The position numbers were made by a program, and so were the translations under genes. Shown in pieces: positions 17,574-20,295 of a stretch of DNA of 64,000 bases. Below the pieces are notes generated by a model that searched no databases, was not told the DNA's origin, and was given only the letters and a program-made list of their open reading frames with translations. Origin of the DNA: a virus. Its lineage: Duplodnaviria > Heunggongvirae > Uroviricota > Caudoviricetes. Where the stretch lies: the IMG/VR virus record IMGVR_UViG_2778260994_000001, one strand, 5' to 3'. Every line of letters begins with the position of its first letter. Position 1 is the stretch's first letter.

Positions 17574-18275
17574 TTATTCTGATTCTCGCTCAAAAAACGA
17601 GCTAATGAGGGGAAGCCAATCCTCTGACACTTCGCGAGGCCGCGGTTTGCCGTGGAAAAAGATTATTCGGCAGTCCTTTGGTAATGCCCCATTCCCCCTG
17701 GAGTAACGCGCGCTCGCATATTTTGAACCAGGTTCCACAACATCGGCCTTGTAACTTACAAACCATCCTGGATACAGATCCTGAAATGCTGGTGTATCAT
17801 CGCCCATAACCTTCCGTAAGAACCCCTGATCACCCCAGCACTCAGTAGTGACACAACGAGCAATCCAACCTTCCGGATCTTGCCAGAATGAACTCCAGAT
17901 ATGTGCTTTTACACTATTTGGTATCCACAGGGCACCGCTACCACGATATTGTGGATGGTAAAAATCCCTAAGCATGGTGAAGCAGGTTGGTGGATTCTCA
18001 AGGATTGGGCGTATATCACCGGCAATAACCGTGTCCAAATCCAGATAGAACAGATCATCGGTTATATCCGGTCGGAACAACTCGATTTTCGCCCACCAGC
18101 CACGGCACTTTTGCCACTGGTTGATCAATGGGACAACTTTGACGCCAGGTACATGTAAACGCTTCAGGTCTGTCAGGCAAATAATTTCATAGCCTTTTGG
18201 CAGTTGATTAACCAGCCACTGCACATCGGAAGCGTTATAGTCACCACCAGAGCGAAGAACTAAAGCAATCTTCAT
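17574..18275 (-). CDS. Putative nucleotide-sugar transferase-like protein (233 aa)
   Basis: [11 protein letters not shown] DxD-type motif; translationally coupled to ppp (ATGA overlap); fold assignment tentative. Confidence 0.5.
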
Positions 18276-18964
18276 GCTGCACCATCACCTTTCACTTTCA
18301 TCAATGTCAGGTTTCCGCAAAATACGGCACCAGTGTCGATATACTGCTGATTCCAGAATGTCTTCGGGCTTTTCACCGGAGTGTGACCAAAGATAAAACG
18401 ATCTGCGCCCGAAATTTCGCCACCAATATCATCCATCGAATCACTGATACGCTCGCGCGCCCAGACAACGTTGAAAAGCGGCACCTCCTTACCGAATTGG
18501 TATTCATTATCCGGATAGTCGGCATGGGCTATAACGATAGTTTCTTGCCCGGTGTTCAACTCAATGATATAGGGCAGACGCTTTACCAGCTCCACCAGCG
18601 CCCTGGCTAATATTTCCTGATCAGTGTCCAGCATGAAGAACCATTGTCCGCCATTCATTAGCCAGTTATTCACGTTGCCATCAGGACTTAACGCATCAAT
18701 CATCAGCCGCTCATGGTTCCCCATCACTGCCCTGAACCAGGGCATCTGCAATAGTTCCAGACATTCGACATTTTCAGTACCGCGATCGATAAGGTCGCCG
18801 ACCGATATCAGTAAATCCTGCGCCGGGTCAAAATCCACACGATGGAGTTCGGACATCAGTCTGGTGTAGCAACCATGCAGATCACCAACAACCCAGATAT
18901 TCCTGTATTTGGTACCGTCGATACGGTGATAAATTGTTGGTGCCATCATGTATTCTTCAGCCAT
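18272..18964 (-). CDS. ppp: Ser/Thr protein phosphatase (lambda-PPase / PrpA-like metallophosphoesterase)
   Basis: GDLHG, GDLIDRG, GNHE motifs; long colinear similarity to lambda phosphatase as recalled. Confidence 0.9.
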
Positions 18965-19572
18965 TCTTTAAGAGTCATCTGCGGAATACCTCCCATTTTC
19001 CCGCATGAAACAACGTCAATCCGTTCACGCGCAGACTGGAATAACAAAGGCAGGTGACTTAGATTTTTTGGCGTGCCGCCGGAGTGAACGCGTGGTTCTT
19101 GTGTAGCGTCAACGCCCACCAGGGCGACATGTTTGAATCCGATATGGAAAGCCAGGTTCAGAGCACCATATGCACTATTGCCGCTGGCAATTTCATTCTC
19201 ATCTTCGCAAAGTCCGAAATGTGCGGACCAGCGCCACGCCCACCACTCGGGAGAATTCGTATTTTTTGGCTCCATGCCACGTTCAGCCACACGACGGAAG
19301 CACAGAACGCCGTCTCTGACTTCACGTTCTTTAACATCGGGTAGTGCCATGCAATAACAAACACCACGGCGACGGCGGCCACGACCAACGCGCCGCATAT
19401 TGTCTGGCGATGGATCAAGTGTGAAAAAATAAGAAGCGCGGTTCAGCCAGTCGATGGCCCCATTGACCGCTATAATCGGCACTCCGCGCGGCGCAACAAA
19501 GTTTTCGGCGCTTGGGCCACTGCCGACGATAATAACGCGATCACTGCCTCTAAATTTATTCTTGGGAAACAT
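18946..19572 (-). CDS. MptE-like/DUF115-like protein (208 aa)
   Basis: VIIVGSGPS...IIAVNGA motif pattern; AGGAG RBS 12 nt upstream of the ATG at 19572. Confidence 0.6.
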
Positions 19573-20097
19573 TGAATTGCACTGCTCCTACTTGCATTCA
19601 AAATATGTAAATCTGCGTGTTTTTTGCGGGTATCCAGGAACTGCTGTTGCCATTTTGAAATAGACACCTGCGTTGGATTCCGTAGGGCTTGAGGGTGCGC
19701 GCCATGCCAATGAAGGCCGTTTTGCAGAGAACAGTCATAGCCGACTAATACCACTACTTCAGCCCCTGATTCAGCAGCCAGACTGATAGCCTGCGCGCCG
19801 CTATTTACCCCTTCCGCCGGTCCACAATATCGCCTGTACTCCAACGAAAATGATTTCGCCGCCGCCAGGTTGGCTGTCACTTTGCGGAATCTCCCTCCCG
19901 GTATGGTGGATCCGTATTGCTTCCACCATGACAAATCACCGGCGTATAAGGCATAAATGTCATCGAACATCTGCCAGGAATTGTTAACCGCGATGATTGA
20001 ACAGCCAGTTTTTTCTATAGCAGCACAGTCCTCACGAGTGAGTGACGGACCGCTACCGACACAAAAAACAGTCCTAGTCGCCCTGCGTGGTATGTTC
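19470..20097 (-). CDS. MptE-like/DUF115-like protein, paralog of 18946-19572 (start taken at MNIPRR)
   Basis: VFCVGSGPS...IIAVNN motif pattern; 3' end overlaps the next gene by 103 nt. Confidence 0.55.
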
Positions 20098-20295
20098 ATT
20101 CTCAGCTGCAAATTCAGCCTCCAGGCGAGCATTCATTTCAGCGATTACAGGGTCCACTACAGCATCTGTTTCCTGTTCATTACGCGGCATGATCGATGCC
20201 AGCGATTCATAATTAGCCTTGGATGACACGATTATTCTCCCGATGTTAATGTGCGCTATATCAAATGGCGCATATGTACTAATTAATTTATTATT

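Follow-up and report, generated by a model that had tools for sequence, protein, structure and literature searches.

The pmgN-pmgO-pmgP-ppp-pmgQ operon of bacteriophage P1 lies on the minus strand at positions 17574-20229 of a 64,000-nt viral sequence, IMG/VR record IMGVR_UViG_2778260994_000001, which by its sequence is a P1-like phage-plasmid and is referred to here, at its full length, as the window. Three of the five genes, pmgO, pmgP and pmgQ, travel together as one cassette among unrelated phages. Their products are two paralogs of the MptE/Maf/sialyltransferase fold and an enzyme whose modeled structure is that of a GT8-like DxD (hexosyl)transferase with a GT-A fold. The reading favored here, to which a probability of about 0.4 is attached, is that this lytic-phase cassette builds a glycan of the 3-deoxy-D-manno-octulosonic acid (Kdo) type and glycosylates a virion protein, with the virion slightly favored over the lipopolysaccharide (LPS) core as acceptor. 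The phosphatase gene ppp, situated between pmgP and pmgQ, is a P1-lineage-specific insertion outside the conserved cassette, and the 103-nt overlap of pmgO and pmgP is, on the sequence evidence, a genuine and conserved packing of the two genes. A first-pass annotation of the window had described four co-directional genes and a small acidic open reading frame (ORF) at this locus; all lie on the minus strand, and the ORF list reproduces each coordinate of the four. The genes are as follows:

pmgN, 20074..20229, minus strand: acidic protein of 51 amino acids (aa) with a GTG start, supported by the ORF, the P1 annotation, phrog_2350 (E 1e-37) and alignment.
pmgO, 19470..20132, minus strand: 220 aa, MptE/Maf/GT42-like fold, predicted transferase of a cytidine monophosphate (CMP)-ulosonic acid (Kdo type).
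pmgP, 18946..19572, minus strand: 208 aa, PmgO paralog and, by profile comparison, WaaZ homolog; phrog_2111.
ppp, 18272..18964, minus strand: 230 aa, lambda NinI-type Ser/Thr phosphatase.
pmgQ, 17574..18275, minus strand: 233 aa, GT8-like retaining GT-A glycosyltransferase as modeled; phrog_1962.

PmgO and PmgP are true paralogs. Profile-profile comparison linked them at 98.5% (E 2.5e-14), and hhalign of the PmgP against the PmgO family returned 97.8-98.8%. Both adopt the three-dimensional fold of the MptE-like/DUF115 family, and several homologs with 40-70% identity to one or the other bear a precomputed PF01973 label. The earlier call of two MptE-like paralogs holds, though under the Pfam cut-off; nothing points to the pterin (diphospho)kinase role that had been associated with it. 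PHROGs assigns PmgO to an ‘alpha-2,3-sialyltransferase’ family and PmgP to an unnamed one. The best structural match is Maf, a flagellin glycosyltransferase (5MU5) that has 16% identity and flanking domains that PmgO lacks. Alignment of the PmgO profile with CstII superimposes the GNGPSL and SG...GID motifs in a weak match (E ~0.3), and histidines following the GxD motif are invariant (H141/H143 in PmgO, H173 in PmgP), candidate counterparts of the catalytic His188 of CstII. Searched directly by sequence in PDB, NCBIfam and PADLOC, PmgO, PmgP and PmgQ gave nothing significant. Searches of the literature for phage DUF115/Maf proteins, phage Kdo transferases and glycosylated virions of Gram-negative phages yielded nothing relevant.

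One phage contig encodes the PmgO and PmgP domains as a single in-frame fusion of 376 aa, and this protein carries a faint precomputed match to PF27901 (‘WaaZ_KDO_III’). Homologs of Escherichia coli WaaZ (CAZy family GT73), which carry PF01973 and PF27901, were collected and compared with the phage proteins by profile-profile alignment (hhalign). PmgP matched the WaaZ family at 95.5% (E 1.5e-8) in local and 97.5% (E 2.6e-11) in global mode over ~200 columns, whereas the match of PmgO was weak (62.7%). By this comparison PmgP is a full-length homolog of WaaZ, the E. coli and Salmonella enzyme that adds a third Kdo (KdoIII) to the LPS inner core and upon whose induction the outer core loses its terminal disaccharide. 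The two share the motifs SGP(S/T), (A)VNG, (T)LD and G(L/V)D. At ~23% identity, PmgP is 75 residues shorter than WaaZ, phage-borne and paired with a second paralog, and Kdo transfer by PmgP is a prediction from sequence. The waaZ gene of strain K-12 lies between waaY and waaU, whereas pmgP is found in a phage operon outside the waa cluster.

The third protein of the cassette, PmgQ, had been noted as DxD-transferase-like, and structural comparison supports a GT8-like GT-A enzyme. Its AlphaFold2 model has a mean confidence (pLDDT) of 94.8, and the top 50 Foldseek matches are GT8-type or related retaining GT-A enzymes, the best being AgtA (6mw5, E 5e-9), with glycogenin, LgtC, WbbM and GlyE also represented. 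Like LgtC, glycogenin, AgtA and WaaO/WaaJ, PmgQ combines the GT-A fold with a DxD motif (D79-L-D81, encoded at 18033-18041) and a C-terminal H-x-G-x-P-x-P(W) metal/uridine diphosphate (UDP) motif (H-G-K-P-R-P, encoded at 17637-17654), and D79, D81, H208, G209 and P213 do not vary across 60 sequences. It differs from these GT8 enzymes in having only 11-17% identity, template modeling (TM) scores of 0.5-0.6 and no Pfam GT8 match, and in belonging to a large family of its own (2558 clusters). Elsewhere, PmgQ-domain proteins are fused to MptE-like, sugar O-methyltransferase and GT9 heptosyltransferase domains.

The distribution of these genes was surveyed in 80 genomic loci encoding PmgO relatives, 76 of which come from Gram-negative phyla; the other four are contigs binned to Paceibacterota, Saccharibacteria or Spirochaetales. 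Citrobacter rodentium carries a lambdoid prophage in which O, P and Q, at 41%, 57% and 43% identity respectively, are adjacent without ppp; the cassette occupies a position between spanin and terminase genes, downstream of phage gene Q. PmgQ relatives stand beside PmgO relatives in Halomonas, Dechloromonas, Azonexus, Mesorhizobium and others. A PmgO-like gene is the constant first gene of related cassettes while the remainder varies, the genes directly downstream being GT9-like (PF01075 at cut-off), S-adenosylmethionine (SAM) methyltransferase, MptE-like paralog, PmgQ-like or sulfotransferase-like. Enterobacterial prophages (L007-L032, ~6000-8100) carry PmgO-like, GT9-like and methyltransferase genes between spanin and terminase. 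Locus L093 (5837-10670) encodes, right after the major capsid gene, a PmgO-like protein, a protein of no assigned function, a 760-aa methyltransferase-GT9-PmgQ fusion and a sulfotransferase-like protein. Genes of ~290 aa that single-linkage clustering had placed with PmgO were rejected as paralogs (hhalign <1%) and are instead GT9-like. Neighboring gene clusters were labeled with PHROGs, and the 61 loci with a clustered PmgO-like gene were classified by context: head and connector genes enclose 21, structural genes adjoin 11 on one side, a lysis cassette adjoins 12, and 17 remained unclassified. No integrase or repressor was noted among the neighbors of the classified loci, in an inspection that was not a systematic search for such genes and did not cover the 17 unclassified loci. 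PADLOC models for defense and anti-defense gave no match for PmgN, PmgO, PmgP, Ppp or PmgQ.

Features of the P1 reference that bear on expression were located in the window:

PpmgN, 20302..20328, minus strand: predicted sigma-70 promoter within the 3' end of pmgM; P1 feature with 1 mismatch, and a consensus scan finds a promoter-like site at 20321-20293.
Oppp (former Op83), 20273..20289, no strand assigned: C1 repressor operator of the P1 annotation, with 2 mismatches in the window.
OpmgRb and OpmgRa (C1 operators) with the PpmgR promoter, 17507..17572, no strand assigned: between pmgQ and pmgR in the P1 annotation; OpmgRb and PpmgR are exact in the window.
pmgR and pmgS region, 16010..17492, minus strand: directly downstream of pmgQ with no terminator between, identified from ORFs, P1 annotation and PHROGs.
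Intrinsic-terminator-like hairpin, 15961..15990, minus strand: strong, with an 11-bp stem and a T-run, ending the pmgN...pmgS transcription unit.

Because a C1 operator is annotated at the promoter, the operon is expected to be off in lysogens, and this repression together with the late and structural neighborhood suggests that the cassette would be expressed in lytic growth only. A late promoter is annotated upstream of pmgL in P1, and a sequence scan found no terminator-like site between pmgQ and the essential head-completion gene pmgR. In-frame deletions of pmgN, pmgO, pmgP, pmgQ and ppp plated normally and retained antirestriction (Gonzales et al., 2022), and CRISPR interference (CRISPRi) classed pmgO, pmgP, ppp and pmgQ as non-essential, so that by these published results the four genes are dispensable for plaque formation. 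CRISPRi of pmgN reduced plating to 1.4e-2, in conflict with the viable in-frame deletion, while guides against the downstream genes had no effect; the pmgN result could be polar, off-target or due to promoter occlusion near Oppp/PpmgN.

In the favored model, virion glycosylation would draw on sugar nucleotides available in any Gram-negative host. A first ulosonic acid, probably Kdo taken from CMP-Kdo, would be attached by PmgO and a second by PmgP in the manner of WaaZ, and PmgQ would contribute a hexose, presumably from a UDP-hexose donor. For PmgO and PmgP the proposed donor is CMP-Kdo, since no other CMP-ulosonic acid is made by all these hosts. The acceptor would be a phage-made particle protein, and the modification accessory and dispensable for plaques. 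A particle protein is favored because of the late or structural location of the genes, their control by the phage repressor and the resemblance to Maf. The glycan-modifying role put forward in the first-pass annotation is the best reading. The more specific proposition, that PmgO, PmgP and PmgQ put a short, Kdo-containing glycan resembling the LPS inner core on a P1 particle protein, and that cassettes with heptosyl-, methyl- and sulfotransferases do likewise in many Gram-negative prophages, is offered more tentatively and may well prove wrong.

Several observations weigh against virion glycosylation. No glycosylated P1 virion protein has been reported, and a virion proteome paper from 2022 mentions none. 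Among the relatives, an acceptor is known by experiment for WaaZ alone, and that acceptor is LPS, not protein; GT8 and GT9 are classic LPS-core families, and we know of no precedent for protein-linked Kdo. In P1 itself the cassette is not directly beside the capsid gene. As to chemistry, the donor sugars are deduced from fold and host range, and the scores for the MptE-like family (PF01973, DUF115) are 23.7 bits for PmgO and 21.6 bits for PmgP, both under the gathering threshold of 34.6. The pyrophosphokinases with this fold, MptE and thiamine pyrophosphokinase (TPK), come close in structural score, and PmgQ matches no Pfam family at E <= 0.1, Glyco_transf_8 included, and no NCBIfam model.

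Some plausibility, short of an even chance and slightly below that of virion glycosylation, attaches to a reading in which the same enzymes act on host LPS, with PmgP adding a WaaZ-like third Kdo and PmgO and PmgQ extending the remodeled inner core. The outer-core glucose that serves P1 as receptor would then be truncated or masked, with the effect of restricting superinfection or reducing how many progeny are lost on debris. LPS-core remodeling draws its support from the full-length homology of PmgP to WaaZ, which adds KdoIII and whose induction is accompanied by loss of the outer-core disaccharide, from the company of GT8- and GT9-type enzymes, and from the role of LPS core glucose as the P1 receptor. 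PmgQ is GT8-like, in common with the LPS and lipooligosaccharide enzymes LgtC, WaaO and WaaJ, GT9 heptosyltransferase-like partners adjoin the homologs, and the hosts of those homologs are mostly Gram-negative. The operator predicts, however, that the P1 operon is silent in lysogens, and homologs lie within late head/neck or lysis-terminase operons. Prophage seroconversion modules (gtrABC, oac) are other accessory glycosylation systems encoded by phages and not needed for plaques, with different enzyme families. Their genes, in contrast, are expressed in lysogens and found near int/att; where its context can be classified, the O-P-Q cassette is in late operons, in P1 it is under a C1 operator, and it has no flippase or other membrane component. 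LPS made late in a single lytic cycle would also replace only part of the LPS on the cell surface.

It is improbable, to a much greater degree, that PmgO and PmgP are not glycosyltransferases but pyrophosphokinases of the MptE/TPK type with a small molecule or a nucleotide as substrate, or modifiers of phage DNA. The weak Pfam matches of both proteins are indeed MptE-like, but the best structural match is Maf, the GxGPS and SG...GxD motifs align, if weakly, with CstII, and PmgP is homologous to WaaZ; neighbors and fusion partners are all glycan enzymes, and the cassette resides in structural and not replication modules. PADLOC recognized none of the operon proteins, and P1 DNA is not known as hypermodified. 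The closest known systems include Maf and the Campylobacter sialyltransferases CstI/CstII (GT42); the hosts considered here generally lack nonulosonic-acid pathways, which makes CMP-Kdo the likelier donor. The dispensability of the P1 genes recalls the glycosylation of mycobacteriophage virions, reportedly natural for the capsid and dispensable for plaques (Freeman et al., 2023). That system is likewise phage-encoded and accessory, and its enzyme families differ from those of the P1 cassette.

The identification of Ppp as a lambda-type Ser/Thr phosphatase was confirmed by a full-length match to the lambda NinI phosphatase 1G5B (E 2e-95, residues 11-229); the Metallophos domain scores 60.2 bits against a cut-off of 21.5, and the translation shows the GDxHG, GDxxDRG and GNHE motifs of its lambda homolog. 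The lambda gene resides in the nin region, whereas ppp is found inside a glycosyltransferase cassette. Among the 80 loci, Ppp was encountered only in P1-type ones, and even there it is missing between P and Q in one element (L087), as it is in the C. rodentium prophage. Phage D6, conversely, lacks O, P and Q but has ppp, at 90% DNA identity, in the company of nin-like genes. It is because ppp is absent from O-P-Q elsewhere and present alone in D6 that it is considered an insertion. The earlier proposal that the four genes form one functional module, with a phospho-glycan or other phosphate-dependent modification as its product, did not survive this comparison and has very little probability left. 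In its favor are overlaps of 19 nt between pmgP and ppp and of 4 nt between ppp and pmgQ, and co-transcription of the three genes in every P1-type genome that has ppp. However, membership of Ppp in the module was rejected on the pattern of co-occurrence, lambda has the same phosphatase without any such cassette, and nothing points to phosphate-dependent modification. Two other genes nearby have related affinities: pmgM (20296-20874) has a weak VRR-NUC nuclease match just under the Pfam cut-off and is Holliday-junction resolvase-like in PHROGs, and pap (15430-15936) encodes a haloacid dehalogenase (HAD) phosphatase of the polynucleotide-kinase-phosphatase type. With ppp included, the set looks like functions of the lambda nin region rather than morphogenesis genes.

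The unusual overlap by which the upstream paralog runs into the downstream one was reproduced exactly. The two genes share 103 nt, with pmgP in the -1 (+2) frame relative to pmgO, and the same overlap is annotated in the P1 reference (80152-80254). Its elements in the window are the following:

Dual-coding overlap, 19470..19572, minus strand: PmgO residues 187-220 (last helix and disordered tail) and PmgP residues 1-34 (leader, strand 1 and SGPS nucleotide loop).
AGGAG Shine-Dalgarno sequence of pmgP, 19585..19589, minus strand: 12 nt before the ATG, within the invariant Ser181-Arg182 codons of pmgO.
A_AAT_TTA heptamer in the pmgO frame, 19551..19557, minus strand: formally a -1 slippery site into the pmgP frame, judged to be a chance occurrence.

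Six divergent loci with 41-72% protein identity, representing four further lineages beyond P1, have overlaps of 49, 70, 70, 70, 94 and 109 nt, always in the identical relative frame. The 70-nt form is found in P1-type plasmids of Klebsiella and Salmonella and in a metagenome contig (PmgO ~70% identity), the 49-nt form in a Pantoea element (PmgO/PmgP identity 60%/72%), the 94-nt form in the C. rodentium lambdoid prophage (41%/57%) and the 109-nt form in a more distant element (50%). In the AlphaFold model of PmgO the last helix spans residues 194-206, and confidence is low over residues 207-220. Across six lineages, PmgO residues 187-202 are 55% identical and the co-encoded PmgP residues 1-15 are 52% identical; PmgP residues 16-35, comprising the essential strand 1 and SGPS loop, reach 78% identity, opposite a PmgO tail that varies from 0 to 20 residues. 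About 48-49 nt of the overlap, coding for the last PmgO helix and a PmgP leader under loose constraint, are therefore structural and old, and the remainder is incidental run-on. In P1 the PmgO tail is 11 residues (33 nt) longer than in the nearest relatives because the TGA that ends the pmgO frame in those genomes (gcaATGAac or cccTGAat) was lost by a change at PmgP residue 23, the P1 sequence being gccGAAAac.

The pmgP start codon is embedded in the codons of the conserved Q/K-C-F motif of PmgO (caATGttt), and pmgP would be translated independently from the AGGAG inside the pmgO Ser-Arg codons. The ribosome-binding site had been described as strong; the motif is present, but its 12-nt spacing is longer than optimal. 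Both motif and spacing are retained in four P1-type relatives (L005, L085, L086, L088), and in L087 a GGAG stands nearer the ATG. A later start was rejected: no ATG, GTG or TTG occurs before residue 31, and initiation there would remove the SGPS loop as well. Automatic calls of pmgP homologs in three relatives are only 173-186 aa long and begin 22-35 codons late (L087 4630-5151, L088 4615-5175, L091 9001-9531), and in all three the upstream ATG and full N-terminus are intact. The short calls are gene-caller artefacts that dodge the overlap and cut off the nucleotide-binding loop.

The first-pass annotation had also raised the question of a frameshift error, to be checked in independent assemblies. 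Neither a sequencing frameshift nor a programmed -1 frameshift at A_AAT_TTA yielding a PmgO-PmgP fusion has any appreciable likelihood. The heptamer does conform to the canonical X_XXY_YYZ pattern in the pmgO frame, pmgP is in the -1 frame, and natural in-frame O-P fusions exist. A sequencing error is nevertheless ruled out by hundreds of independent assemblies that carry the same overlap sequence (220-aa PmgO represents 382 database sequences and 208-aa PmgP 982) and by relatives at 41-72% identity in which both frames are intact and the overlap is kept. Programmed frameshifting was rejected since the heptamer occurs only in the P1 lineage, being absent from the ~70%-identity relatives L085 and L086, and the 84 nt downstream of it fold no better than shuffled sequences (z = +1.1). 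By calculation, ~13% of 34-codon stretches would contain a heptamer of this class by chance, and a -1 shift at this point would remove the last helix of PmgO.

Further overlaps occur within the operon, of 59 nt for pmgN/pmgO in addition to those of ppp with its neighbors, and the P1 reference contains a 196-nt same-strand overlap of pmgT and pmgU (window ~14307-14502) that exceeds that of pmgO and pmgP. Long overlaps thus recur in this part of P1 and are not peculiar to this gene pair. The small acidic ORF that had been placed at about 20070-20183 is real and corresponds to pmgN; the shorter version seen at first is the core, conserved from Met14 across P1-type relatives in the alignment.

The operon as such is familiar. 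The window has 98.3% DNA identity over 3 kb to the P1 reference AF234172 and was collinear with P1 across 7 kb at 98.1% identity with one gap. A megablast search with 17400-20400 found 19 phage records with >=80% coverage and 97.8-98.8% identity, including P1, P7, RCS47 and SJ46, and blastn with 18900-20250 matched 588 plasmid records, of which 582 reach >=95% identity. The P1 reference lists pmgN, pmgO, pmgP, ppp and pmgQ, with the C1 operator Oppp and the predicted promoter PpmgN upstream and two operators, pmgR and pmgS downstream; the five coding sequences, Oppp and PpmgN all locate in the window. In P7 the names hdmA, hdmB, hdmC, ppp and hdmD correspond to P1 pmgN, pmgO, pmgP, ppp and pmgQ (annotation of Lobocka et al., 2004), and the window shows no material difference from the P1/P7 operon, having the same gene order, 103-nt overlap and C1 operator. 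Since the P1 reference and RefSeq already contain these genes, their overlap and product names at family level, the feature was already known. The labels given there, ‘putative morphogenetic function’ and ‘head morphogenesis’, are placeholders. It had been considered that the genes might match P1 pmg genes with established and unrelated roles; the match stands, but the supposed role is a placeholder label only. The misspelling ‘norphogenetic’ in the P1 pmgM note has propagated to the NCBI/RefSeq names of hundreds of PmgO/PmgP homologs.

P1 is the standard phage for transduction in E. coli, and P1-type phage-plasmids spread resistance genes; the 588 plasmid records carry this region, in which four conserved P1-type genes still go by a placeholder name. 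The real unit is the O-P-Q cassette of glycosyltransferase-like enzymes, common to lambdoid and HK97-like prophages, related to WaaZ and located in lytic or late operons. If a particle protein is the acceptor, the modification would bear on phage immunogenicity and on the engineering of P1 particles for delivery, and a Kdo glycan on the particle would, as far as is known, be the first virion glycosylation system in phages of Gram-negative bacteria and the first protein-linked Kdo, found moreover in the transducing phage in widest use. If LPS is the acceptor, the cassette would represent a lytic-phase mechanism of receptor masking. A practical consequence for annotation is that gene callers repeatedly mis-start pmgP homologs.

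Two further regions of the window drew attention. The segment 51500-53850 is an island of low GC content (35.8% vs ~47% elsewhere) that contains ORFs at 51797-52147, 52170-52646 and 52688-53755, the last with a weak SH3_3 match. It abuts pmgC/tub and an antirepressor-like gene, a position where P1 carries its sim region, and has no megablast-level match in any phage record and no PADLOC match. ARAGORN predicted four tRNA genes within 28989-31061, namely Met(cat), Ser(tga), Thr(tgt) and Asn(gtt). Three tRNAs are attributed to P1, for Asn, Thr and an Ile read from CAU, and the 87-nt tRNA-Ser at 30400-30486 may be unannotated or spurious.

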